In this document: positions 1 to 11,999 of the stretch, one piece after another | Numbering within the stretch: the first letter of the stretch is position 1 | How the letters are laid out: each line of letters starts with the position of its first letter | Notes under the pieces: model-generated | Databases searched by the model: none | What the model was told of the DNA's origin: nothing | What the model saw: only the letters and a program-made list of their open reading frames with translations | Made by a program: the position numbers and the translations under genes | Origin: a virus | Taxonomy: Duplodnaviria; Caudoviricetes | Direction: 5' to 3' (one strand) | Length of the DNA: 54,217 bases | Virus record (IMG/VR): IMGVR_UViG_3300014050_000030 | Coordinates: 1-54,217 of that record

Positions 1-72
1 GGCTCAGGGCTATCTGATAAGTCGGGGGCTCAGGGCTATCTGATAAGTCGGGGGCTCAGGGCTATCTGATAA
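1..72. repeat. 26-bp perfect tandem repeat (about 2.8 copies; may continue left of the window)
   Basis: Unit GGCTCAGGGCTATCTGATAAGTCGGG at 1-26 and 27-52, partial at 53-72; no spacers. Confidence 0.95.
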
Positions 73-161
73 CAGGCAGGCACAGGGCAGGCACACGCAT
101 TACCTACGCCTATTGGTGGCTCTACTTATTAGTAGGTGAAATCACCAAAGCGCCATTATTT

Positions 162-190
162 TAGCCGACTAGGACTCGGGCTGTTAGGCT
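162..190 (+). promoter_or_regulatory. Putative sigma70-type promoter with extended -10 for the left-arm operon
   Basis: TAGCCG (162-167), 17 nt, TAGGCT (185-190) preceded by TG-n; upstream of the AAA gene. Confidence 0.35.
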
Positions 191-302
191 TGGGGCAACG
201 GCAAGAGCGAGAGAGTGACCCCCCGAATTACATGGTTCGGGAATAATGGATTATTCTCTGCTGTTGTCACTACCGACAAGTCCTAGAAAGGGGCATAACG
301 CT

Positions 303-1631
303 ATGAGCGTAGCACTACTGATTGAGTCCGTTGTTGAGGGTGGCAAAATGCAGTCCCTCGTCACGGAGTACGGCAATTTCCACCGCACTTCCACAGGTGC
401 TCGTGGTCGCGGCGAGGCATGGAAGGCAGGCAACCATTCAGGCGCAAATCCTTCCGTGTCCAAGATTGTGGGCATGACCGTCCAGCCTGCTGACGAGCGC
501 GACTTGCGTATCGGCAAGGTCACAGGTCTTGCCACCAAGTTGGTCGGCATGGAGCCGACCATGGACACCTATCCTGAGGGCTTTGCTCGCCACCTGAACG
601 CAGTCCACAATTTGACTGAGGCGGTCAAGTCGCAGTCACAGGACTTGGTGGCTCCCTACTTCCGCTCTATGGTCTTGTTCGGTGGAGCGCAAACCATTCA
701 GGCGCAAATTATTCCTGCTCCTGTCATGGAGTCCGTATCCGTGGAGCGTCCTGTCATGGTCGGCGCTGCTCCTGTCATGGAGTTGGCAACCGTTCCACCG
801 ATTGAGATTGCCGACAGTTACATTCAGCGCAAGGTGGTCGGCAAAATCACGGAGTTTGATATTTACGATGTAGCCATGCGCGACAATAAAAATATCCTTA
901 TCAAGGGTCACGCAGGGTCGGGCAAGACCATGAGCGTTGTCGCCTACGCTGCCAAGCGTGGCTACCGCTACTACAACATCTCGTCCCACGCAGGCGTGGA
1001 TACCACGCAGTTGTTCGGCAAGTGGAACCCACAACCTGACGGCTCGCTTCGGTGGGTGGACGGCGCGGTCACTCACCTTGTCCGTAATGGCGGAGTGCTC
1101 CTTATCAACGAAATCAACTTCTTGCCTGAGCGAATTTCCACGGCGTTGTTCTCGCTCTTGGACGACAGGCGCGAAATCCAACTTGCCGACAAGGACGGCG
1201 AGGTAATCAAGGCTCACCCTGAGTTGCTTATCTTGGGTGACATGAACCCGAACTACCGTGGCACTCGCCCACTCAACCAAGCGTGGTCTGACCGCTTCGC
1301 TCTCGTCTTGGAGTTCCCATATGACCCAAGCATTGAGGCGAAACTAATCAAGAACAAGGCGGTCTTGGACTTGGCTGCCAAGTTGCGCCAGCAGTTTGAC
1401 AATGACGAATTGGAAACCCCGATTTCCACTCGCGGTCTTGTTGCCTTCCAGCACAGCATGGCGACTCTTGGATACGACTTCGCGGTCTATTCCTACCTGA
1501 ATAAATTCGCTCCGCATGAGCAACAGGCGGTCAAGTTGGTCTTTGACACCTACGCCGAAAACATCAAGCAGAACGCGACTGAGTTCGCCAGCGTGGACAC
1601 CTACGCCGACATGACTGAGGAAGGGCTCTGA
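303..1631 (+). CDS. MoxR-type AAA+ ATPase (CbbQ/NorQ/CobS-like)
   Basis: Walker A GHAGSGKT, Walker B-like VLLINEIN, MNP.Y.GT.PLN.A..DRF sensor/R-finger; start moved to ATG 303 after AAAGGGG RBS. Confidence 0.9.
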   Translation: MSVALLIESVVEGGKMQSLVTEYGNFHRTSTGARGRGEAWKAGNHSGANPSVSKIVGMTVQPADERDLRIGKVTGLATKLVGMEPTMDTYPEGFARHLNAVHNLTEAVKSQSQDLVAPYFRSMVLFGGAQTIQAQIIPAPVMESVSVERPVMVGAAPVMELATVPPIEIADSYIQRKVVGKITEFDIYDVAMRDNKNILIKGHAGSGKTMSVVAYAAKRGYRYYNISSHAGVDTTQLFGKWNPQPDGSLRWVDGAVTHLVRNGGVLLINEINFLPERISTALFSLLDDRREIQLADKDGEVIKAHPELLILGDMNPNYRGTRPLNQAWSDRFALVLEFPYDPSIEAKLIKNKAVLDLAAKLRQQFDNDELETPISTRGLVAFQHSMATLGYDFAVYSYLNKFAPHEQQAVKLVFDTYAENIKQNATEFASVDTYADMTEEGL

Positions 1632-1633
1632 GC

Positions 1634-3607
1634 ATGGGCAAAAAATACACCAATGACGCTCGTGAGCGTTACTACCAAACCTACAACAACGCACGAATTC
1701 AGGCGCAGAACGAGGGCGTGGAATTTGTGGAGCCGTCCTTCGCGGATACGACTAAGACGCTCTTGGAAGTGGATACACTTGCCAGCGTGTATTCGCTCAC
1801 GGACAAGGTGCTCACCAAGAGCAACCCGACTGTGTACCTGACCGACTCTACTGAATTGACTGTGCCTGCCATGAATGACGGCAAGGACATTTTCATCAGC
1901 ACTAGAGGCTATGGTGACCGCGTTAATAATATGGACATTGCAATGTTCCACGGACTCAATTACCACGAGGTCGCCCACCTGCTCTACTCGCCGCGTCAAG
2001 GTGCTGAGTTGGGCAAGTGGCTCAAGGATAATGACGACTACCTTCGGGCTTTTAATATCCTTGAGGACGGACGCATTGAGGTTCTGCTCACCCACAAGCA
2101 CCCTTCGGTCATTCCGTTCCTGACCAATGCCGTGGTCAAACAATTAGTAAAAAATATTGAGCCCGAAAACTTTGTAATCACTCGTGGTCGGCGCTACCTG
2201 CCCATTGAGGTTCGGCGGTTGTTCGCAGGGCTCGCGGTGCAGAAGTTCGGCAAGGACAAGGTTCGCGCTCTTGCCGATTGCATTGACGAATTCCGCCTGC
2301 TTAATATTTTCCAGCAGCCCGACAAGGCTAAGGAAATTATTATCAGGTTCGCCAGCCTCATTGAGGACATGACACCGCCAGCCAGCCCGAACGGTTGCGG
2401 CAAGCCTGTCAAAGATGAATGGGGCAGGACTAGGGAGAAGGCGCGTCCTGTGATGAAGGCAGGTCGCACCGAAACACCCAAGAACATTCAGGAGTTGCTT
2501 GACCAAATCACCAAGAGCGACAGCAACGCTGAGGACTTGGAAAACCTAGAGGGTTGGGACAAGCCTGAGGACGGCGAGCAGCAGGACGGCGAGCAGCAGG
2601 ACGGCGAGCAGCAGGACGGCAAGCAGCAGTCGCAGCAGGAAGGCAGCACCCAACGCGAGCGCGAGCGTCAAATCATGGAGCAAAGCGTCAGCAATGCTGA
2701 GGGCGACCAAAGCATTAGCAACGAGGTCAGCCGTGTACGCAAGGTTGTGCGCGAGTCTGTCGGCAAGGCGGTGGTGAATAATATCAAGAAAAACAATTCG
2801 CCCACCTTCCCTGTGCAGCAGACAGCACGAGTCTCCGCTATCAAGTTCGCTCGTGAGTTGGAGCAGTTGCAGCAGCAGACAGACCCCTCGTGGGTTGTGG
2901 AGCAGCCAAGCGGTCGCGTCAATATCCAGCGATACATGAGGCGCGACCCTAACGGTCTTAATAAAATCTTTGACCGTTGGAGCGAGGGTAATTATTCCCA
3001 CGAGATTGAGTCAGTCGTCTTGACCGACTGTTCGGGTAGCATGGGTTCGGTCATGCAGCAGGCTAACGAGGCGACTTGGATTATCAAGCGAGCGTTGGAG
3101 TCCATTCAGGGCAGCGTCACTTCCTACGCATTTAATGAAAGCCCGAAACTAATTTACACGGCTGACGAGCGCACTAGTGCTAATGCATATCGCAACCCAC
3201 AATCCAGCGGTGGCACTAATCCGCTTGACTGTCTGCTTGCAGCGCAGCGTATTTTCATGGGCTCGCAAAAGACCACGAAACTATTATTCATGGTCACGGA
3301 CGGCATGTGGAGCAACGCGCAGCAATGCGACAGCCTGCTCCGTGAAATGGAAAAAGAAGGCGTTGTCACTATCCTGATTTACTTGGGCAACCCTTATTGG
3401 CGGCGTGGGCAGAACGGCAGCCCAATAAATATCAAAAGCAGTTGGTACGACTATTGCACCGACCCTGCTGACCGCGAGAAGGCATATGCCTACTCCATGA
3501 AAAATGAATTCCATGACGCGCAGATTAAGCACTACCTGACTGACGCTAAGGATATTGTGGAAGTGGCTAAGGCAGTTGCCAATACGCAGATTAAGGCGGC
3601 GATGTAA
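1634..3607 (+). CDS. vWA-domain partner of the MoxR ATPase, with N-terminal HExxH region (CobT-like architecture)
   Basis: HEVAH, NILEDGRIE, acidic linker, MIDAS DCSGS, GGT and TDG motifs. Confidence 0.85.
   Translation: MGKKYTNDARERYYQTYNNARIQAQNEGVEFVEPSFADTTKTLLEVDTLASVYSLTDKVLTKSNPTVYLTDSTELTVPAMNDGKDIFISTRGYGDRVNNMDIAMFHGLNYHEVAHLLYSPRQGAELGKWLKDNDDYLRAFNILEDGRIEVLLTHKHPSVIPFLTNAVVKQLVKNIEPENFVITRGRRYLPIEVRRLFAGLAVQKFGKDKVRALADCIDEFRLLNIFQQPDKAKEIIIRFASLIEDMTPPASPNGCGKPVKDEWGRTREKARPVMKAGRTETPKNIQELLDQITKSDSNAEDLENLEGWDKPEDGEQQDGEQQDGEQQDGKQQSQQEGSTQRERERQIMEQSVSNAEGDQSISNEVSRVRKVVRESVGKAVVNNIKKNNSPTFPVQQTARVSAIKFARELEQLQQQTDPSWVVEQPSGRVNIQRYMRRDPNGLNKIFDRWSEGNYSHEIESVVLTDCSGSMGSVMQQANEATWIIKRALESIQGSVTSYAFNESPKLIYTADERTSANAYRNPQSSGGTNPLDCLLAAQRIFMGSQKTTKLLFMVTDGMWSNAQQCDSLLREMEKEGVVTILIYLGNPYWRRGQNGSPINIKSSWYDYCTDPADREKAYAYSMKNEFHDAQIKHYLTDAKDIVEVAKAVANTQIKAAM
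2570..2629 (+). repeat. In-frame 15-bp tandem repeat x4 encoding DGEQQ
   Basis: GACGGCGAGCAGCAG x3 plus GACGGCAAGCAGCAG. Confidence 0.95.
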
Positions 3608-3924
3608 TGGCTACGAGCAAGCCTTCGGGCAGCACACGGCAGGGTATTCCCAACGATGATTTAATGTGGAATGTCAAGACACCAAAGTTTGACAACCCTG
3701 TCTGTGCTGACCCAACCATTGACCCCGAAATATTTTTTCCAATTAGTACGCAACCTAAATACGCAGAGCCAGCCAAGCAGGTGTGCCGTTCATGCCCTGA
3801 GGTGATGAAGTGCGCTGAGTTCGCCATGTCCGACCTGCGTATTCAGGGGGTGTGGGGTGCGCTCACTTGGGAGCAGCGTAAAGATTTAAATAGGCAAATT
3901 AAATTACAGAATGGGGATAAATAA
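3607..3924 (+). CDS. whiB: WhiB-family Fe-S transcription factor
   Basis: C...DPEIFFP...AKQVCRSCP...C...GVWGA. Confidence 0.93.
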   Translation: MATSKPSGSTRQGIPNDDLMWNVKTPKFDNPVCADPTIDPEIFFPISTQPKYAEPAKQVCRSCPEVMKCAEFAMSDLRIQGVWGALTWEQRKDLNRQIKLQNGDK

Positions 3925-4067
3925 TGTCTGCCTATTGGACTGACCACCTAGCCCACACTCTAAGCATTTCACAGCGGGTGGACGAGGACGGCAGAGCGGC
4001 GTATCAAATGTGGTGTACGGATTGCGATGTGTTGCTCTCTGATAATGAAGGTGAATTAAATTGGTGA
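3924..4067 (+). CDS. Small hypothetical protein (47 aa, CxxC), not in ORF track
   Basis: MSAYWTDHLAH...MWCTDCDVLL...; TAATG and GTGA coupling on both sides. Confidence 0.6.
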   Translation: MSAYWTDHLAHTLSISQRVDEDGRAAYQMWCTDCDVLLSDNEGELNW

Positions 4068-4489
4068 ACACATTCCTGCCCTATGAAAGTTACAAGCAGT
4101 CGGCAGCCGTCTTGGACATGAGGCGGTTGGGCAAGCAGCGCGTAGAGGCTTATCAAATTCTGCGAGCGTTGTCGGGCTTGAGCAAGGGGTGGGTCAATCA
4201 CCCCTGCTCAAATATTTGGCGTGGGTATGAGCCAGCCCTCGCACAGTACGCGCTAGTTGTTTGTGTTGAGTGGCGCAAGCGTGGCTACCAAGATACCGTG
4301 TACGACAAGGTGCGAGCCATGTACCCTGAGGTGTCGGAGCACTTCGCCTCGTCCGTCCGTCCACCAATCATCGGACGCGAGGACTTTCACCTGTCCCACA
4401 GGAGCAATTTGCTTCGCAAGGACTTTATGCATTATTCTCAATTTGACGGCTTTGACATAGGTGCAGACCTGCCCTATGTGTGGGTATGA
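4064..4489 (+). CDS. MSMEG_6728 family / pyrimidine dimer DNA glycosylase-like protein
   Basis: MNTFLPY...LD..RLGKQRVEA.QIL, W.NHP...W.GY, H.SH.SNLLRKD, LPYVW. Confidence 0.85.
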   Translation: MNTFLPYESYKQSAAVLDMRRLGKQRVEAYQILRALSGLSKGWVNHPCSNIWRGYEPALAQYALVVCVEWRKRGYQDTVYDKVRAMYPEVSEHFASSVRPPIIGREDFHLSHRSNLLRKDFMHYSQFDGFDIGADLPYVWV

Positions 4490-4503
4490 AAGGGGAAAGA
4501 CCA

Positions 4504-4656
4504 ATGGATATGCCAACCGATTACCTGCCGTATGACGGCGAGGCTTGTAATGTCTGCGAGCGAGAGGCGACTCGTATCGTCTTGTTTGAGAATTCGCAAA
4601 TGGCTTTGTGCCGTAGTTGCAATGGTAAAGATGTCTATGAGAGAGAGGGTTACTGA
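4504..4656 (+). CDS. Small Zn-finger-like protein (CxxC...CxxC), not in ORF track
   Basis: MDMPTDYLPYDGEACNVCE...MALCRSCNGK...; AAAGGGG RBS; TGATG coupling. Confidence 0.55.
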   Translation: MDMPTDYLPYDGEACNVCEREATRIVLFENSQMALCRSCNGKDVYEREGY

Positions 4657-4880
4657 TGAAAATTGTTCGGCAGTATGTCAAGGAGTACGACATTCAGGCG
4701 CACATAAATGTGGACGATGAATGGGTTGCTGAGTTTGTAAAGAAGTACGCTGCGGAAGCAGGAGAGGAACCGTCCATCAGCGAAATTTATGACGCTGCTT
4801 TGGAAAGTGATTTATTCACAGAGGAAATTGACTTTGAGGAAATTGGGGACGAGCGAGCCGTAGAAACTTGGAGAGACTAA
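4656..4880 (+). CDS. Hypothetical acidic protein
   Basis: Coupled ORF in operon. Confidence 0.65.
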   Translation: MKIVRQYVKEYDIQAHINVDDEWVAEFVKKYAAEAGEEPSISEIYDAALESDLFTEEIDFEEIGDERAVETWRD

Positions 4881-4882
4881 TT

Positions 4883-5077
4883 ATGGACGAGGAAACTTAT
4901 TGGAAAGTAAAAGCCGATGCCGACATGGACGCATGGGCTGAAATGGAGTGCGAGAGTTGCAACGGCACTAATGCCGACCACGAGGAACAATGTGAGGAAT
5001 GGGAGTGCCGCGATTGCGGTGCTTCTTACCCTGACCAGCACGAGAATAACTGCGACTACATGAAAGACGAGGACTGA
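4883..5077 (+). CDS. Small Cys/His-rich protein with two CxxC...H...C repeats
   Basis: CESCNG...HEEQC and CRDCGA...HENNC; GGAG RBS. Confidence 0.65.
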   Translation: MDEETYWKVKADADMDAWAEMECESCNGTNADHEEQCEEWECRDCGASYPDQHENNCDYMKDED

Positions 5078-5078
5078 C

Positions 5079-5561
5079 ATGGGTTTGGATATGTATTTAT
5101 CGGTAGGTAAATCTATTTCAGGCGAGCATTATTCTCCTGAAGCGGAGAGAGATTATTACGAGGGGCTAGTCTCTGTGGGAAAAGCGTCATTTATGAAAGG
5201 GCTCCCGCATTGCTCAAAACTTGCCCATGTGGAGTTACAAGTCGGTTATTGGCGAAAGGCTAATGCTATCCACTCGTATTTTGTAAACTCTGCCCAAGAC
5301 GGCGTTGATGATTGCCGTAGGTCTTATGTGCCGCGAGATACGATGAGAGAACTTGTAGATTTTTGCAAAGAGATTATTGACAGCAATTTTGACGCTGATA
5401 AATGCAATGAGTTGCTGCCGCCGTGCGAGGGCTTCTTCTTCGGCTCTAATGAAATTGACGAGTGGTATCAAGAAAACATAATTTACACCTACGATACGCT
5501 CAATTATCTTTTATCAGCCGTCCCCGATGAATGGTCGTTTTATTACCAAGCAAGTTGGTAA
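5079..5561 (+). CDS. Conserved phage protein of MGLDMYL / YWRKANAIH type, function unknown
   Basis: MGLDMYL, YWRKANAIH, GFFFGS, YYQASW motifs. Confidence 0.8.
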   Translation: MGLDMYLSVGKSISGEHYSPEAERDYYEGLVSVGKASFMKGLPHCSKLAHVELQVGYWRKANAIHSYFVNSAQDGVDDCRRSYVPRDTMRELVDFCKEIIDSNFDADKCNELLPPCEGFFFGSNEIDEWYQENIIYTYDTLNYLLSAVPDEWSFYYQASW

Positions 5562-5563
5562 TA

Positions 5564-5770
5564 ATGGGCTCAAAGAAATTTGAGTGCGATAACAAGTCTT
5601 GCTACAAGACACCCGTAATCAGAGGGGAGCCCTCACCCTTCGGGTACTGCATGACCCACGACCACAAATTATGCAAAAAGCAGTTTAAGTATTATGATAA
5701 AACCTTCACCTGCTCTTGCACCTGCCACGAGAAAGACCCCGATGAAAGAGATACAAAACCCCTGCCCTAA
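5564..5770 (+). CDS. Small Cys-rich hypothetical protein
   Basis: GYC...H..C...CSCTCH. Confidence 0.6.
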   Translation: MGSKKFECDNKSCYKTPVIRGEPSPFGYCMTHDHKLCKKQFKYYDKTFTCSCTCHEKDPDERDTKPLP

Positions 5771-5897
5771 CCTTCTTAGGTACGAGGGCAAGAAAGTTCA
5801 GCATGAACGCGGTACAAAATACGGTAATTGCAGTCAATGTGACGCATACAACCGCCGACTAGATAGGAGAGCAAATAGTGGGAAAGCATTTAGATAA
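5742..5897 (+). CDS. Small hypothetical protein (C..H..CxxC)
   Basis: Fills gap in operon; overlaps both neighbours. Confidence 0.45.
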   Translation: MKEIQNPCPNLLRYEGKKVQHERGTKYGNCSQCDAYNRRLDRRANSGKAFR

Positions 5898-6015
5898 AAT
5901 TTTAAAGGCGCTAGAAATTCGCAGACGCAATGCGCCCGACAAGAGAGGCTTCCACAAGCCGGGGTCTATGAACAAGAAAAAGACAGGCTATGCAAGCAGA
6001 GGAAAGAAGCGATGA
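5878..6015 (+). CDS. Small basic protein (45 aa), not in ORF track
   Basis: GTG start after AGGAGAG; MGKHLDKILKALEIRRR...FHKPGSMNKKK; ATGA overlap with next gene. Confidence 0.65.
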   Translation: MGKHLDKILKALEIRRRNAPDKRGFHKPGSMNKKKTGYASRGKKR

Positions 6016-6590
6016 CAGAGCCGTGGTTTGAGGGGGAGTTCCCTAATTGGTTTGAGGTCACAGGAGAGAGATTGTTTGAGACTCATGTGCCTAAGGACAA
6101 GCCGTTGAGAGTTTTGCAAATTGGCGCGTTCACAGGAGACGCTACAGAATGGTTGCTAAAAAATAGAGAGATTATTTGCGTACACGATGTGGACACATGG
6201 GAAGGCAGCGAAGAAGAGGCCCACGACGGCCTTGACTTCCAAAAAGTGGAAGCGCATTACGATAATAGATTTGAGAAAGAGAGACGCGTCACTAAATATA
6301 AAATGACCAGCGATGCGTTCTTTGCTCTTGAGGCTCCTAAGCATGGAGAGTTGTACGACTTTATTTATATTGACGGCGACCACACCGCCACGCAAGTTGC
6401 CATTGACGGATTTAATGCCTTCCGTTGGGTAAAGCAAGGCGGGCTGATAGCCTTTGACGATTTCACATGGAGCACAGGATTAGGAGAGTTTTATGAACCC
6501 GCCCTCGGAATTAGGTGCGTTTTGACAGTTTGGGAGAATAAGTATAAAATCGTGGAAGCAAGTTCACAAGTATGGGTAGAGAGGTTCTAA
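6012..6590 (+). CDS. Class I SAM-dependent methyltransferase (Methyltransf_24-like)
   Basis: LQIGAFTG, DVDTW.GS, YDFIYIDGDH, GGLIAFDD. Confidence 0.88.
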   Translation: MTEPWFEGEFPNWFEVTGERLFETHVPKDKPLRVLQIGAFTGDATEWLLKNREIICVHDVDTWEGSEEEAHDGLDFQKVEAHYDNRFEKERRVTKYKMTSDAFFALEAPKHGELYDFIYIDGDHTATQVAIDGFNAFRWVKQGGLIAFDDFTWSTGLGEFYEPALGIRCVLTVWENKYKIVEASSQVWVERF

Positions 6591-6889
6591 TGGACAAAGA
6601 CAGAGCAGAGTCGCTCAAAGATATAATTGCAAGACTTGATAAGACTTTTGGCAAGAGAGCAAACTCTACGCCAGCCCCGACTGTAGAGGAAATAAGAGCA
6701 AGACAGCGTAGAATTGAGGCTGAAGACTTTTACACTTGGCTTAGTAAGGGCAAGGCAAGAGGTTGGGTTACTGACTCGTTTTGTAACACCCATGACGGCG
6801 ACCCGTACATGACACCTGAAGAAGAAAAAGAGTGGGACGAAGGCGGCGACCCTTGCATGGTTGTCATCAAAGTTCTGTTCGGACAATGA
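6590..6889 (+). CDS. Hypothetical protein
   Basis: Coupled ORF; W...FCNTHDG...GGDPC. Confidence 0.7.
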   Translation: MDKDRAESLKDIIARLDKTFGKRANSTPAPTVEEIRARQRRIEAEDFYTWLSKGKARGWVTDSFCNTHDGDPYMTPEEEKEWDEGGDPCMVVIKVLFGQ

Positions 6890-6899
6890 GGAGAATAAA

Positions 6900-7139
6900 A
6901 TGGCAAATAAAGCGGTAACCAATCCCTGTTCAGGCGGTGGCAAGAAGCCTGAGGGAGTCGTAATTCCATTGGGCAGCAAGTCTGTGGCACAATGCTCTGA
7001 CTGCGCTCAAACAATTACGGTTAATAAAGCCAACGGAATGTTCCGTAGGCATAATGCTGCATTTGAAGTTCAGCCCGTTGTCCAGCAGGACAGCGGACTC
7101 GGTGAACCCGCGTTGGCTGAGGCGACAGCAGCAAACTAG
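6900..7139 (+). CDS. Hypothetical Zn-ribbon-like protein
   Basis: GAGGAG RBS; C.G.G...CSDC...H. Confidence 0.65.
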   Translation: MANKAVTNPCSGGGKKPEGVVIPLGSKSVAQCSDCAQTITVNKANGMFRRHNAAFEVQPVVQQDSGLGEPALAEATAAN

Positions 7140-7164
7140 AAAAAGCAAACTATAAAAGCGCAAG

Positions 7165-7204
7165 AACAAATAGCCCCCTGCCAATCAGCAGGGGGCTATT
7201 TGTT
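7165..7204. terminator. Bidirectional intrinsic terminator at the convergence point
   Basis: 17-bp perfect stem AACAAATAGCCCCCTGC-caatca-GCAGGGGGCTATTTGTT between convergent genes. Confidence 0.9.
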
Positions 7205-7210
7205 TATCTA

Positions 7211-9238
7211 TTACTTTTGCGGCATCTCGCAAGCGTCTGTGGTGCAGTAAGCCTCACCAGCTGCGTCCTTTGCATTACCAGCGTAGATAGAGGAGAAATT
7301 AATCGGCTTCAGTTTGTTTGTGTTGGCGTCATAATCCGCCTGTGTAATCTGCGTGTACGGCATCTGCGGATAAGTGGCATTACCCATAGGAAGGAAGGAC
7401 ACGGTTTTGAGTTGTCCGTCATACATATGGAGCACCTTACTCACATCACCGCGTTCTTTTTCCGCGTCAAAGGATACGGTCACAGACACGGAGTTGTCCG
7501 ACCAATGACGCTGAGAGAGTGCCGCAAGAGAGATTTTCTCGTAGATAGACACCTCGGACTCGGAGCGCTTGGCTTGGGACTTGATTGGGAAATACACAAC
7601 GCTGGTCGTGTCAGGCGACTCGGACGCGCTCTCGACCTTGTACCCCGCATTGCTGAACAACGAGAGCATCGGGTCATCGTTGGAAAATCTGATTGCCCGA
7701 AGGAAGTAAGCGCCGCCAGGAGTCCAGTGAACTCCAGGAGACTCCCCGGCAAGGATGGAGACAGTTCCGCTTGGTTTTACAGTCGTGGTTTTAATAGACT
7801 CACGAATACCCAGCCACTCAGAATACGAGCGGTCATAATAAGCAACAGTTTCGTAGCCCTCGTTCATCCAGTCCCGGAGAATTGTCAGGCCACGGTTGTC
7901 ACCGAAGTTGGCAATGCCAGACATGGAAGTACCGATGCGGCGGTTGCGCTGCATGATTGCATTTGTTTCTTCCCAGTGAGTTGGGAGAAGCGTCACGGTC
8001 TTGGCGTAGAGATACGCGAACTTCAGAGTGCGCTTGTAATCCTCAAGGCTCTCGTGGCGGTTCAAGTAAGTCTCGACCAAGGTGCAGCACTCGAAGGACT
8101 CAAGCGATTGCTCGGCGCAAGGGTTGTAGCCAGCGGCCCGCCAGTCTTTATTATTTGGCTGGTCAAGAAGCCGCCCATAGTTACGAGTAACATCCATCCA
8201 AATTACGCCGGGTTCGCCGTTAAGGGCGATGTTGTCCACAATGTGCGAGAGGTCGTCTCCGACCTTCACCTCAACGGAGTTGTTAGACATCCAACCCCAG
8301 CCCGGATTTTTTGCGCTGTAAGAGTTGCGGGCGGGGAAGCGCTTTGGGTTTTTGAGGTTGAGGAAGGTGTCATCATGGATAGAGCCCATGAGCAACTCGG
8401 CGGAACGGCGAACATTGCCCGACACCACACACACCCCAATGAGGTTTCCGATATCGGCAATATCGCGGGAGTCAATCTCCTCGCCTTCCCTACCCTCAAA
8501 AATCTTGGCAATAGCCTTGTGCAATTTAATAAGAGGTTCTGCACCAGCAGCCGTGCCCCCGAAAGTCTTGATGGGAGCTCCCGCTGGTCTAATCTGGCTG
8601 TAATCAAACACCACGGGATTTTGCGGTTCTGGCTTCAAATAAGAATTAATAACCAAAACAGTGCTTTCCACCCAACCCTCGCGAGTATCAGGGATGGCGT
8701 AGTGAATTGGCTCGCCTGTCGGCTTGCCGATAATAAATCCCTTTTCTACTCCCTTGGTGTCAAAACCAACACCCACACCCAGCATGGACGCTTCCATGAG
8801 AAAGGCGAACGGCTTGGCTGGGTTGTGGCGCGTCATCTCCGCTGTGGAGACGAAGGCGCAGTTCTGCAAAGCGGCGGAGTTCTTTTCTTCATTCACCAGT
8901 GGGGTGCCCATAATCCAAAGACCACGACCAGGCGGCGTCCACTTCAATTCAAACATACGCTCGAAGGCTTCCTTTGCGGAAACCTGAGCCTTCTTCTCAT
9001 TCCACGGCAGACGGTTAGTTTTGCAGTGGTCTTTCTGAATTGAATACATACCTTCAATTACGCGGCGGCATACATCAGCCCAAGTCTCCTTGGTGCCGTC
9101 CTCTTTGATGCGGGAGTAGGTTCTCAGGAACGTGATTTCGCCAAGGGAGTTGCCCCCGGCATCTGTGTACCCCCACGGGACTGGCCGACCCTCGTATTGG
9201 GAAACGAACTCATCAGGGAGTTTAAATGACAATGACAT
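7211..9238 (-). CDS. nrdJ: Class II (B12-dependent) monomeric ribonucleoside-triphosphate reductase
   Basis: FLRTYSR, PPGRGLW, NCAF, GNVRRSA, NPCAEQSL, TVKPSGT, C-terminal CTTDAC. Confidence 0.95.
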   Translation of the reverse strand: MSLSFKLPDEFVSQYEGRPVPWGYTDAGGNSLGEITFLRTYSRIKEDGTKETWADVCRRVIEGMYSIQKDHCKTNRLPWNEKKAQVSAKEAFERMFELKWTPPGRGLWIMGTPLVNEEKNSAALQNCAFVSTAEMTRHNPAKPFAFLMEASMLGVGVGFDTKGVEKGFIIGKPTGEPIHYAIPDTREGWVESTVLVINSYLKPEPQNPVVFDYSQIRPAGAPIKTFGGTAAGAEPLIKLHKAIAKIFEGREGEEIDSRDIADIGNLIGVCVVSGNVRRSAELLMGSIHDDTFLNLKNPKRFPARNSYSAKNPGWGWMSNNSVEVKVGDDLSHIVDNIALNGEPGVIWMDVTRNYGRLLDQPNNKDWRAAGYNPCAEQSLESFECCTLVETYLNRHESLEDYKRTLKFAYLYAKTVTLLPTHWEETNAIMQRNRRIGTSMSGIANFGDNRGLTILRDWMNEGYETVAYYDRSYSEWLGIRESIKTTTVKPSGTVSILAGESPGVHWTPGGAYFLRAIRFSNDDPMLSLFSNAGYKVESASESPDTTSVVYFPIKSQAKRSESEVSIYEKISLAALSQRHWSDNSVSVTVSFDAEKERGDVSKVLHMYDGQLKTVSFLPMGNATYPQMPYTQITQADYDANTNKLKPINFSSIYAGNAKDAAGEAYCTTDACEMPQK

Positions 9239-9362
9239 GGCACTCTTTCTTTGTTAAAGGTCAAAGGTCTAGAATAGTGCGTAGCGTACAAACTTACATT
9301 GGGAGCTGTACAACAGGGGATGCTACAATTCATATAAGAAATGGCATCTTATATGATAAGAG

Positions 9363-10817
9363 TTAGTCCTCTGTTATCTCCTCAATCAAGGCGTCTGTCG
9401 CCTCTGCATCATAACCACCGCCGGGTAACTCCCGCAAGTTTTGGGTGGCTCTTTCACCAAAGATACTAGATAGAACGCCAGCCCCGCCCGACCTCTCAAC
9501 AGTCATTCTGATGAACTCTTTGGAGTCGTTCAATTCCTTAACCGTCTTTATAATTTTGAAAAGGCGGTCAATTTCTTGACTAAGGTTGGGGTCAGGGTAG
9601 CCACCGTTAATTTCCTCGGAAAACCTTGCAAATGCTACTCTTTGGCCCTGCATCTCAATGATTGCATTGATGAAAGATTGCATCTGTTCTTTGGTTCTCA
9701 ACTCCAACGGAAGGTTGAAGGAGCAAGCATTGTCCATCTTGAAAGCGGGGCACTTGGATGCTATGAAACATGTGTTGCACATGCGCAAAGAGTTGGCGGT
9801 TGAGGTGATTACCTGTCGCTCCGATATGACATCGCGGCCCTCTTCGTCAGGCTCTATAACCGTCTTATACTCCAGCCCAAGGACAGGCAAAGTGGTCATC
9901 TCGGAAGGATTTCTCGGGATTAACTTTCCACCTTTTTCCGGCTTCTTATCAACATCAGATGAGGCGGTTTCCGCTAAATCTGAAGAGGGCTCATTTCCGC
10001 TGTTATATGATAACTCTCGGTCCATCTTAGCCTCCAATTGCTCGTATGACCATAAGGCTAACTTGCAGACCTCAATATTATCATCATTTAAAATTTTATT
10101 AAAATCTAAATCTGCTTTCTCTGCCGCCGCCTTGCATCTGGGGCGGGCTTGGTCTTTCATGGCCTTGGGGTACCGCACAAGCTCCGCACCATCCCACATA
10201 ATGGTCTCGCCATGCATCATTGGAGATAGCCACGATAGGGTGGAAACAGATGTAAAAGGCGTTGATTTTAATTCACTGGGGTCAGCAAAAGCGGTAGTGT
10301 GGAACTCGGTGCCGTATTCCCGGATAGCTGCACGCATCCTGTGAATGAAGGATGTGGACTCCTCAAGACGTTCTTTAGGTACCAAGATATTTTTATAAGT
10401 TGATGCAAAATAATCTAATTTGCTGTCATCATATTGAGGGCGGAACACAGCTATAAATTTATCTGGCTCTTCTTCCCATGCTCCCCGACGCTGTTCGGTG
10501 GCCATCCGCTCGCTCAGCGACGCATGGTCTACCTCTACAAAATGGGATACACGGTCAATATTATTGACAATAAAATCTTCATAATCTGCGCAAAATTCTT
10601 CCATTTCCCGCTCTGAAAGCTGGGCCTTTGAGGGGATACCTGCGTAGACTGTAATATTCATGAAGGGGTTAAAATAATTAGACAACAGGTATTCTTTGGT
10701 TTTAGGCAGCCCGCGCTGGGATGCCCGCCAAAACGAAAACCCTACTTCTCGCACGCCCATGGTTTCCAGAATCTTCCGATTGCTGGGAACTTCAGCTCCT
10801 AAGTATATAAATTTCAT
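9363..10817 (-). CDS. Uncharacterised 484-aa protein; possible alpha/beta-barrel N-domain plus Cys cluster
   Basis: Long coupled ORF; FTSVSTLSWL segment and CNTC-x5-C-x8-C cluster; fold guess unverified. Confidence 0.8.
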   Translation of the reverse strand: MKFIYLGAEVPSNRKILETMGVREVGFSFWRASQRGLPKTKEYLLSNYFNPFMNITVYAGIPSKAQLSEREMEEFCADYEDFIVNNIDRVSHFVEVDHASLSERMATEQRRGAWEEEPDKFIAVFRPQYDDSKLDYFASTYKNILVPKERLEESTSFIHRMRAAIREYGTEFHTTAFADPSELKSTPFTSVSTLSWLSPMMHGETIMWDGAELVRYPKAMKDQARPRCKAAAEKADLDFNKILNDDNIEVCKLALWSYEQLEAKMDRELSYNSGNEPSSDLAETASSDVDKKPEKGGKLIPRNPSEMTTLPVLGLEYKTVIEPDEEGRDVISERQVITSTANSLRMCNTCFIASKCPAFKMDNACSFNLPLELRTKEQMQSFINAIIEMQGQRVAFARFSEEINGGYPDPNLSQEIDRLFKIIKTVKELNDSKEFIRMTVERSGGAGVLSSIFGERATQNLRELPGGGYDAEATDALIEEITED

Positions 10818-11275
10818 ACGCGGTTATCTTCTTCGTATAATTTTTGCTGTTTGTCCAGCTCATGCACGATGTCGGACCAAGCTCTAATTCCTGATGGGCG
10901 GTCTGGGCGAAATTTGTGGTTGAAGTATTTTGGGTGCAAAAATAAAAATACAGACAGGCCCTCTTCCAACAAGCTCTTGGCCAGCTCTAAGTCATCTGTG
11001 ATGACATAATCCACCGGCCCTCTGCTGCGAGCGTGAAGGACCTGCCTGTATTTTTTTACATCTGAAAATGCTTCACCGGGATTATAATCTAAAATATCGT
11101 CTAGCTTTGAGGACAGATTGTTTTGCTTCATCCAGCGGTCTATATCGGTTTTATCGGTGCCAACCAATATAACGCGCTCTTTTTCGGCAAGGCTTTTATA
11201 TAGCCTGACGCCGTCGGGTATAGGGAGGTTATTCTCCCGCCGCATAACCCCGTCAACAAATACTAGGACAGGCAT
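10814..11275 (-). CDS. HAD-fold-like protein (degenerate motif I)
   Basis: N-terminal VLVFVDGVMR; first Asp of DxD absent; later VITDD. Confidence 0.55.
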   Translation of the reverse strand: MPVLVFVDGVMRRENNLPIPDGVRLYKSLAEKERVILVGTDKTDIDRWMKQNNLSSKLDDILDYNPGEAFSDVKKYRQVLHARSRGPVDYVITDDLELAKSLLEEGLSVFLFLHPKYFNHKFRPDRPSGIRAWSDIVHELDKQQKLYEEDNRV

Positions 11276-11276
11276 A

Positions 11277-11999
11277 TCACATCAACTGCTCTAAACCTGT
11301 GCCTGCCTCATTGACTGATGCCCACTCTTTGTAGTGGTTTTCGTTCAACCACATAAACTTGTGGTGCTCGGCAATTGCTCCTGTGTGGGCGTGTACTGGG
11401 ATACCCACATTGTAAAGGCGCGAGAAAAAGCTCAAATCTTCGGACAACCAGCGGTTGCCGTTAATCGGGCCATCTTGGAACCAACACCAGTCAGGGCCGC
11501 AATTTTCATTTACAAACGCTTCCCGCATCTTCTCAAACACGGATTTGTGGATTAAAAGGAAACCTGTACCGGCTGCGGCGACTGGGATGACGGAGTTCTC
11601 CTCATAGTTGTCATAAGGCAGGGCTCCTTTACCTTCTACATCCTTAAAAATAAGCGGCGCGGGGCGAAGGTTGCCGTCAATCCACAAGGCGGCAAAATAA
11701 AGACCTGCCATGACGGGGCGCTTTTCCGCGTCTGCGGCATCTACCAACTTGTCAAATGCTTCAACTGAGATGCGCTCGTCCGCATCGAGCATAAGCAACC
11801 AGTCGCAATTTGAATATTCTAGAAAATGCTTGACGGCAATATTGCGGGATTTTGCCAAAAGGCCTGTGCCCTCTACACAATGGAATGAGCCAATGCGCGA
11901 AGTTCTAGACCGCATAATATCAAGCAAGCTGACCATAAAATCATTAGATACATGGTGGGTGTGGCACCAAGTAATGCAAACTTTTTCAGTCTTTTTCAT
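11277..11999 (-). CDS. GT-A fold glycosyltransferase (GT2-like)
   Basis: RN.AV..FL, WLLMLDAD (DxD), AGTGFLLI..SVF, SED..F, H.K. Confidence 0.85.
   Translation of the reverse strand: MKKTEKVCITWCHTHHVSNDFMVSLLDIMRSRTSRIGSFHCVEGTGLLAKSRNIAVKHFLEYSNCDWLLMLDADERISVEAFDKLVDAADAEKRPVMAGLYFAALWIDGNLRPAPLIFKDVEGKGALPYDNYEENSVIPVAAAGTGFLLIHKSVFEKMREAFVNENCGPDWCWFQDGPINGNRWLSEDLSFFSRLYNVGIPVHAHTGAIAEHHKFMWLNENHYKEWASVNEAGTGLEQLM

Follow-up and report, generated by a model that had tools for sequence, protein, structure and literature searches.

Background

Avoidance of palindromes and restriction sites in phages is classically a genome-wide pattern, and it is usually scored per genome. The DNA analysed here, the entire IMG/VR virus record IMGVR_UViG_3300014050_000030 (a single contig of 54,217 bp, referred to below as the window), raises the question of why such avoidance should act on a single operon. 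An earlier note, made from the sequence alone, had described positions 1–7140 as a left arm purged of six 4-bp palindromes, and had suggested that this arm may enter the host cell first, like the site-poor first-step segment of phage T5, and encode anti-restriction or host-takeover functions. The purge with its statistics and boundaries, its conservation in related phages and the operon structure of the purged unit are demonstrated below. We give a probability of roughly 0.55 to the explanation that the purged unit forms an early operon for host takeover, located at the leading end of the genome and exposed before counter-restriction acts, as in T5-like and T7-like phages.

By its gene content and relatives, the window is a fragment of a myovirus genome of roughly 87–96 kb; it is incomplete because relatives rated 97–100% complete by CheckV measure 85.6–95.8 kb. 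Its plus-strand genes span 246–7139, and 7211–54130 is wholly minus-strand, with products including a ribonucleotide reductase, a protein resembling tRNA-guanine transglycosylase (TGT), exonucleases, a UvsX-like recombinase, DNA polymerase, helicases, primase, baseplate and tail sheath. Terminase and portal families found no match among the 20 larger minus-strand proteins scanned, and the head and packaging genes of the near-complete relative G007 have no homologue within the window. The runs containing the window sequence are freshwater metagenomes, and a WhiB gene in the arm indicates an actinobacterial host; read from these genes and sources, the phage is a contractile-tailed, uncultured one infecting freshwater Actinobacteria. 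A megablast search of 1–7200 against cultured phages gave no match.

Counts and controls

The five words ACGT, AGCT, TCGA, CCGG and GGCC have no site in 1–5958, whereas all other 5958-nt stretches starting after 7210 contain at least 63 (median 80, maximum 108). The counts given in the earlier note for 1–7140 were exact: GATC, TCGA, AGCT and ACGT are missing, CCGG occurs once (5959) and GGCC twice (6218 and 6228). A maximal-order Markov model predicted 24 ACGT, 31 AGCT, 24 TCGA, 19 CCGG, 27 GGCC and 9 GATC sites in the arm. The means of 300 synonymous codon shuffles within genes were 12.6, 23.9, 32.1, 16.4, 22.4 and 17.8 sites, respectively; the lowest shuffled counts were 3–20 sites per word, with no shuffle under those. 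Such codon-shuffled controls, which the earlier note had proposed as a check, thus reveal a selective purge that codon usage does not explain. CATG, CGCG, GCGC, CTAG, GTAC, TGCA and ATAT were normal in the arm under the same shuffling.

The purge is wider than first stated, and six further words are affected. Compared with counts scaled from the rest of the window, the arm contains 1 versus 29 TTSAA, 0 versus 6.5 GGWCC, 0 versus 7.3 CCWGG, 0 versus 13.4 GAWTC, 0 versus 10.2 CASTG and 1 versus 9.7 CGWCG; TATA is also missing before 6297. The 11-word set has 5 sites in 1–7210 (0.69 per kb) versus 1148 in 7211–54217 (24.4 per kb). A purge core without any site of the 11 words, and without GATC, occupies 1–5958 and is followed by a relaxed tail at 5959–7210, where the density is approximately 6-fold under that of the rest; all five surviving sites (5959, 6218, 6224, 6228 and 7063) fall in this final 1.25 kb of the unit.

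GATC behaves differently. It has no site in all 54 kb of the window, in which approximately 136 are expected, and is therefore no marker of the arm. The arm-specific depletion that the earlier note had claimed for six words holds for TCGA, AGCT, ACGT, CCGG and GGCC and fails for GATC, whose genome-wide avoidance is a first tier distinct from the local purge.

Conservation in related phages

Relatives were retrieved using the AAA ATPase gene at 246–1631 as anchor, which yielded 47 true homologue loci with 42–85% identity. Fifty sources (49 loci and the window) were considered; 15 with less than 4 kb inside or less than 4 kb outside the unit were dropped, including L059 and L060, which are merely 24% identical, and the remaining 35 were collapsed to 24 non-redundant ones by shared 21-mers (>0.3). 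Units were called from open reading frames (ORFs) of at least 150 amino acids (aa), which gives 1–7210 for the window. A cut-off of at least 80 aa was rejected; it cut the window unit at 4252 and failed at 4 loci.

The same minor-strand unit is purged in all 24 non-redundant related contigs, each with at least one of 48 short palindromes depleted at binomial p<1e-3 (range 1–13 words), so that the positional depletion recurs where the earlier note had proposed to look for it. Depletions of a palindrome at a locus numbered 168 inside the unit against 16 outside (at most 1152 tests each way), and a local Markov model gave 3–12 of the 16 4-bp palindromes with an observed/expected ratio (O/E) <0.34 inside the units versus 0–5 outside, a comparison in which fewer outside words reach the required expectation of 6 because outside stretches are shorter in most loci. 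Non-palindromic 4-mers gave 96 depletions inside versus 85 outside, of at most 2880. The depleted words are thus almost only palindromes, beyond what composition and codon usage account for. After correction for composition, the median O/E of each locus's own purged words was 0.16 within the unit, as opposed to 0.92 at distances beyond 3 kb.

The purged word sets differ by lineage, with for instance AATT (0/15) and GTAC (0/18) in L050, GCGC (0/25) in L037 and TGCA (0/19) in L029, which is the pattern that varying host restriction repertoires would produce. In the first three related contigs examined, G001 (43 kb), G002 (66.8 kb) and G003, GATC is missing. In G002, avoidance of GATC, CCGG and GGCC extends over the full 66.8 kb, and that of AGCT and CCWGG is limited to the unit. 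In the four relatives rated 97–100% complete, the unit is the only opposite-strand block. G007 has 58–75 short palindromes per kb at 32–45 kb versus approximately 100–140 elsewhere, G008 is similar, and the unit is the only palindrome-poor stretch in both; G005 shows a partial drop and G004 a weak one.

These comparisons bear on the alternative raised by the earlier note, namely recent acquisition of the arm from a different host background, the donor being taken here as a phage with genome-wide avoidance of the purged words. The arm is richer in G+C (0.51 overall and 0.55 over its first 3 kb, versus 0.48), and some non-palindromic 4-mers differ (of 120, 10 are depleted inside and 11 outside), as such an origin would predict. 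The unit beside the reductase is nevertheless purged in 24/24 relatives across the whole range of anchor identity, with differing word sets and conserved synteny, which rules out recent acquisition. Moreover, no fully purged donor-type genome occurs among the four near-complete relatives, and GATC avoidance is common to arm and bulk. We regard this origin as very improbable and reject it.

Two observations concern non-palindromic words. CCTCC/GGAGG has no copy in the arm (1–7140), in which approximately 10–13 are expected, and 67 copies elsewhere in the window; CATC, CTTC, CCGC, CCAG and CAGC are recurrently depleted in the units of relatives. They may represent targets of a Type IIS-like kind or belong to longer sites.

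Boundaries of the purged unit

As read from the sequence, the purged stretch is exactly the sole plus-strand transcription unit of the window, with a promoter-like site, 15 genes and a terminator hairpin. The predicted promoter-like site (TAGCCG, 17 nt, TAGGCT) lies at 162–190 on the plus strand; the pattern has this one match in the window and none in 100 shuffles. At the other end, a perfect 17-bp hairpin at 7165–7204 (−36.8 kcal/mol, z = −6.9) stands between the convergent units, with A-rich sequence before it and T-rich sequence after it, and is likely a two-way terminator. The first site beyond this hairpin is an AGCT at 7259, and the right boundary had been correctly placed at the strand switch and terminator.

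The left boundary of the window is of another kind. Three tandem plus-strand copies of a 26-bp unit are read at 1–78, at the left end of the contig, and Logan contigs from two public runs (X1 and X2) extend more than 250 nt leftward of position 21; the left end is therefore an assembly break and not a genome end, and the term left arm cannot be kept in its physical sense. No exact terminal repeat was found in the window, and the joints listed for contigs of public runs include none between the left end and a different part.

The closest relative, G001 (85% AAA identity, matching gene order), indicates what lies further left. Seven promoter-like sites and 18 copies of a flanking motif, all on the plus strand, occur there solely upstream of the AAA gene, and the purge begins within approximately 10 bp of the first of these sites. 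The promoter array, approximately 40–50% of it non-coding, is also purged, which places the constraint on the DNA rather than on the proteins. Window positions 1–7210 are most probably the promoter-distal 7 kb of the single minor-strand unit.

Within the G001 locus (L001), 5600–10100 holds an array of at least 14 copies of CTATTCTAGCCAAC. The copies are often arranged as an inverted pair (TTATTCTAGCCAAC ... TGGATAGAATAA) with a promoter-like −35/−10 after it, and between these elements, upstream of the AAA gene, lie seven small genes; the array has the look of a set of early promoters with an operator. Contigs end within approximately 2 kb upstream of the AAA gene in 25 of the 47 homologue loci and in the window, which marks an assembly-break hot spot. 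Repeated promoter elements explain it most simply, and it could also reflect a nearby genome end.

Because the composition changes abruptly at the strand switch, a chimeric assembly of two phages joined near 7200 would be conceivable. A single 6704-nt contig from X1 covers 4925–11628 with 0 differences, a contig from X2 covers 7002–7242, and the unit-then-reductase junction recurs in related contigs from many samples. These independent contigs bridging the junction rule out a chimera, whose probability we put close to nil.

Beyond the hairpin, the restriction words return at a reduced level in the reductase gene (7211–9238), and the purged words have an O/E of 0.60 over the first 2 kb versus 0.90 beyond. 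Across the 24 loci, the reductase-side O/E is 0.73 near the unit versus 0.92 far from it, and near is lower than far in 15 (sign test p 0.15, Wilcoxon p 0.018). The close match of the purge to the limits of the transcription unit, from first promoter to terminator, and the weakness of this spill-over would suit an explanation in which the purge is tied to early expression, with phage-made or infection-induced host nucleases acting while only the unit must stay intact. Against this, any single cut in a fully entered genome is lethal, so that sparing 13% of it brings no obvious benefit, and in G001 the divergent promoter-proximal genes past the promoter region are unpurged, with 32–59 sites per kb up to the boundary. 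We consider a purge tied to early expression improbable.

Position of the unit in the genome

The nearest cultured relatives are the Streptomyces phages BRock and LuckySocke, whose sheath is 35% identical to that of the window. The terminase of G007 is 54% identical to that of BRock, which is described as having a 221-bp terminal repeat with well-defined margins (PMC7453282), and the LuckySocke record (OR725497.1, L086) has a 344-bp end repeat. LuckySocke is collinear with the large block of the window as far as the TGT-like gene, its last large gene. In the place of the purged unit, it has an opposite-strand unit of small genes of approximately 10 kb (103656–113699), which abuts the right physical end and reads inward. 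In G007, the terminase and portal genes lie approximately 8–10 kb into the large block, measured from its divergent junction with the unit. Judged by the synteny with LuckySocke, the freshwater unit probably lies at a genome end, from which it is read inward, and defined genome ends are plausible in the freshwater lineage.

BRock and LuckySocke thus share with the window a minor opposite-strand unit of small genes converging on a large block. They differ in that their minor unit lacks the AAA/von Willebrand A (vWA) pair and shows mild depletion of three words only, and in that their genomes measure 112–116 kb with many tRNAs.

Proposed explanation of the purge

Ongoing selection against cutting by Type II restriction enzymes would keep the DNA of the unit, coding and non-coding, clear of 4–5 bp palindromes. 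This selection would be limited to the unit, most probably because the unit is the part of the genome present in the cell during the time when the host's restriction enzymes still act. Lying at the leading end of a non-permuted genome, the unit would enter first and be transcribed inward by host RNA polymerase from host-type promoters; its products, or slow staged entry itself, would then shield the remaining DNA, which would have to avoid GATC only. Purging just 13% of the genome brings a benefit only where the remainder has yet to enter the cell or has some other protection. The single transcription direction, the outer promoter array, the strong inner terminator and the probable terminal position all fit staged entry, by which we infer that this genome is delivered. 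The terminal position, the order of entry, and the existence and identity of a counter-restriction function are the inferred parts of the explanation.

Several results weigh against this explanation. The evidence on genome ends in this lineage comes from assembled contigs of public runs, and the left end of the window is itself an assembly break. Contig depth in X1 and X2 is flat over the unit and its neighbours (approximately 8.4–11.8), so the unit is not a collapsed T5-like long terminal repeat, although depth derived from contigs is a weak test of a terminal repeat. In G001, the purge covers the entire plus-strand unit of approximately 11 kb, which lies inside the contig between two minus-strand blocks. 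Purge spill-over into the convergent gene, as expected for gradual entry, is weakly seen. Among the cultured phages, the local depletion in LuckySocke is mild (AGCT 19/456, GCWGC 10/315, TTSAA 9/229), with some words enriched, and no local depletion was found in the more distant Gordonia phage ChisanaKitsune, which has the AAA/CobT pair. Scans against Pfam and PHROGs, which covered 10 of the 15 arm ORFs, found no homologue of a known anti-restriction protein and none of a T5 pre-early protein. To our knowledge, staged entry is not known for contractile-tailed actinophages. The suggestion that the arm encodes anti-restriction or host-takeover functions stands as regards an early-type operon, and no anti-restriction gene was identified in those scans.

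A more specific proposal is that a widespread lineage of contractile-tailed freshwater actinophages delivers its genome in stages from a fixed end, and that the conserved AAA+/vWA pair, standing first in the operon that enters first, releases or pulls in the remaining DNA or disarms restriction. We consider this doubtful.

Comparison with known systems

Transfer of T5 DNA halts at an injection stop signal until the pre-early proteins A1 and A2 have been made, and the strong hairpin at 7165–7204 is the sole related feature seen here. As in T5-like phages (Tequintavirus, including T5 and BF23), the leading part, approximately 8–13% of the genome, would carry host-takeover genes, and a structured non-coding element stands at its distal border. 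The T5-type pattern of sites missing in a segment and present elsewhere is found here in the densities of the 11 words. The differences are considerable. T5 is a siphovirus, whereas the phage here has a tail sheath and baseplate; the T5 segment lies within a 10-kb terminal repeat, whereas contig depth is flat here and the repeats of cultured relatives measure 221–344 bp; about a dozen 4–5 bp words are purged here and not a few 6-bp sites; and two-step transfer is demonstrated for T5 and inferred here. The T5 precedent was correctly stated in the earlier note and is supported by two studies (PMC10644984, PMC12455610). In T5-like phages, restriction is described as effective only on sites in the first-step-transfer DNA, the rest being insensitive in vivo (PMC10644984).

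For the T7-like Murciavirus, the restriction motif is reported to matter in the early-injected region only, and its authors describe selection as concentrated on the first-injected segment and the principle as inapplicable to headful packagers (PMC12455610). Host polymerase reads the early genes of T7-like phages inward from the leading end to an early terminator (PMC12455610); possible counterparts here are the predicted promoter-like site at 162–190, the seven co-oriented ones in G001 and the likely terminator hairpin, together with the probable position at a genome end. The Murciavirus case involves one Type I motif, podoviruses and experimental proof (PMC12455610), whereas many Type II-like palindromes are involved here, in an uncultured myovirus lineage known from sequence alone. 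Unlike in T7-like phages, transcription of the remaining genome runs from the other end, on the other strand. T7 has Ocr, whereas no Ocr-like family was matched in the scanned arm ORFs, and the arm has two very acidic microproteins (30–33% acidic residues) notable by composition only.

Genome-wide avoidance resembles the present case in that short palindromes are lost beyond composition and codon usage, and in that GATC is missing from the window and relatives; it differs in that a second, much deeper tier is here limited to one transcription unit. The leading region in conjugative plasmids, where the first-entering DNA has few restriction targets and many anti-defence genes (cited in PMC12455610), is another kind of element with single-stranded DNA transfer.

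The underlying principle is thus already known from T5 and T7. The literature search found the T5 and Murciavirus work and, with supplementary tables outside its reach, no description for this lineage of a multi-palindrome purge limited to the early region. Within that literature, three features were not found in print: the purge of about a dozen 4–5 bp palindromes that is confined to a single early operon, the conservation of this purge throughout a group of uncultured freshwater actinobacterial myoviruses with word sets that vary by lineage, and the combination of a local purge with genome-wide GATC loss. The avoidance acts on a single operon and is unusually strong, with as many as 12 of the 16 four-base palindromes nearly absent, and it does so across a lineage of abundant uncultured freshwater phages. 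If the unit does enter first, the T5/T7 principle would extend to contractile-tailed actinophages, and local palindrome purge would be a sequence-only marker, by which leading ends, early operons and their anti-defence genes could be found and the word lists of lineages read as the restriction enzymes deployed by unculturable hosts. The acidic microproteins, the AAA+/vWA pair and the TGT-like enzyme are flagged as candidate counter-restriction functions. LuckySocke, which has an annotated ArdA-like anti-restriction gene (101870–102541) beside its terminal opposite-strand unit, is a cultured system suited to the first-entry idea.

Neighbouring genes and possible DNA modification

The ribonucleotide reductase (7211–9238, minus strand; phrog_367, E 2.3e-137) is the last gene of the large minus-strand block. 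It adjoins a candidate guanine transglycosylase (TGT/DpdA-like) at 9363–10817 on the same strand, which matched phrog_887 (E 2e-40) and had no match in Pfam, NCBIfam or PDB sequences. Its AlphaFold model has a mean predicted local distance difference test (pLDDT) score of 62.8, with the N-terminal 265 residues forming an alpha/beta barrel. The top 14 Foldseek matches were tRNA-guanine transglycosylases (E 9e-6, template modelling (TM) score 0.34–0.5), followed by generic barrels. Four C-terminal cysteines (347, 350, 356 and 365) are invariant, and a TGT-like protein of 480–497 aa adjoining the reductase is kept in 37 stretches, several of them redundant. The model suggests that the product may be a divergent DNA or RNA guanine transglycosylase, which would possibly modify DNA as a second protection tier.

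Base modification could also explain the purge by itself. The bulk of the genome would be shielded, for example by 7-deazaguanine introduced via this enzyme, and the early unit, left unmodified or kept so for reading by host factors, would rely on site avoidance with no staged entry. The retention of the candidate gene at the end of the large block and its invariant cysteines are in line with this, as is the genome-wide avoidance of GATC, with CCGG and GGCC in one relative, as if a general shield missed some sites. On the other side, the TGT assignment is weak (no sequence match in the three databases, the low pLDDT, TM 0.38–0.5), no preQ0-synthesis genes were found among 20 minus-strand proteins (PHROGs for all, Pfam also for 9), and no non-palindromic word was found that separates the unit from the bulk as a modification motif would. 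We also know of no case of region-specific lack of 7-deazaguanine-type modification, which counts against this alternative. Modification of the bulk is accordingly judged unlikely, although less so than a purge tied to early expression, and exposure of an early operon at the leading end is preferred.

Genes of the purged unit

All genes of the unit are on the plus strand, and they comprise an AAA_5 ATPase, a weak vWA partner, WhiB, a DenV-like glycosylase, an S-adenosylmethionine (SAM) methyltransferase and ten small ORFs. The unit opens with a MoxR/CobS-like AAA+ ATPase at 246–1631 (AAA_5, PF07728, E 3.4e-19, 69.7 bits; phrog_249, E 2.5e-45). Its partner protein at 1634–3607 has a weak CobT-like vWA match (VWA_2, 18 bits versus a cut-off of 27; phrog_5298, E 2.7e-4), and together they may form a MoxR-type AAA+/vWA pair; the homologous pair in the Gordonia phage is annotated as AAA-ATPase and CobT-like. 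The WhiB-like transcription factor at 3607–3924 (PF02467, 50.3 bits versus a cut-off of 23.6; phrog_472) has 4 Cys, and is followed by a 47-aa acidic microprotein (isoelectric point (pI) 4.1) at 3924–4067, named from composition.

A pyrimidine-dimer DNA glycosylase (DenV-like; PF03013, 75.5 bits) is encoded at 4061–4489. Such a glycosylase in an early operon would be sensible for a phage of sunlit surface water that repairs its own incoming DNA. By composition, 4480–4656 encodes a 58-aa protein with 4 Cys, 4656–4880 a very acidic 74-aa protein (22 D+E, pI 4.1) and 4868–5077 a very acidic, Cys-rich 69-aa protein (23 D+E, 6 Cys, pI 4.1), the last two without a family match. The adjacent microproteins at 4656–5077, with 30–33% Asp+Glu, recall DNA-mimic anti-restriction proteins, and no homology was found; on composition alone, the product of 4656–4880 is a candidate for a DNA mimic or an anti-restriction protein.

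The 160-aa protein at 5079–5561 (phrog_7971) has no assigned function; in the distant relative L002, an ORF 38% identical to it lies upstream of the AAA gene. Three overlapping small ORFs (79, 67 and 45 aa) occupy 5531–6015, the first with 7 Cys and the last two basic. A class I SAM methyltransferase without an assigned substrate lies at 6012–6590 (PF13578, 47.2 bits; phrog_2675, 'DNA methyltransferase', E 4.5e-9), and the last two ORFs of the unit (105 and 92 aa) occupy 6572–7139, the second belonging to phrog_6601.

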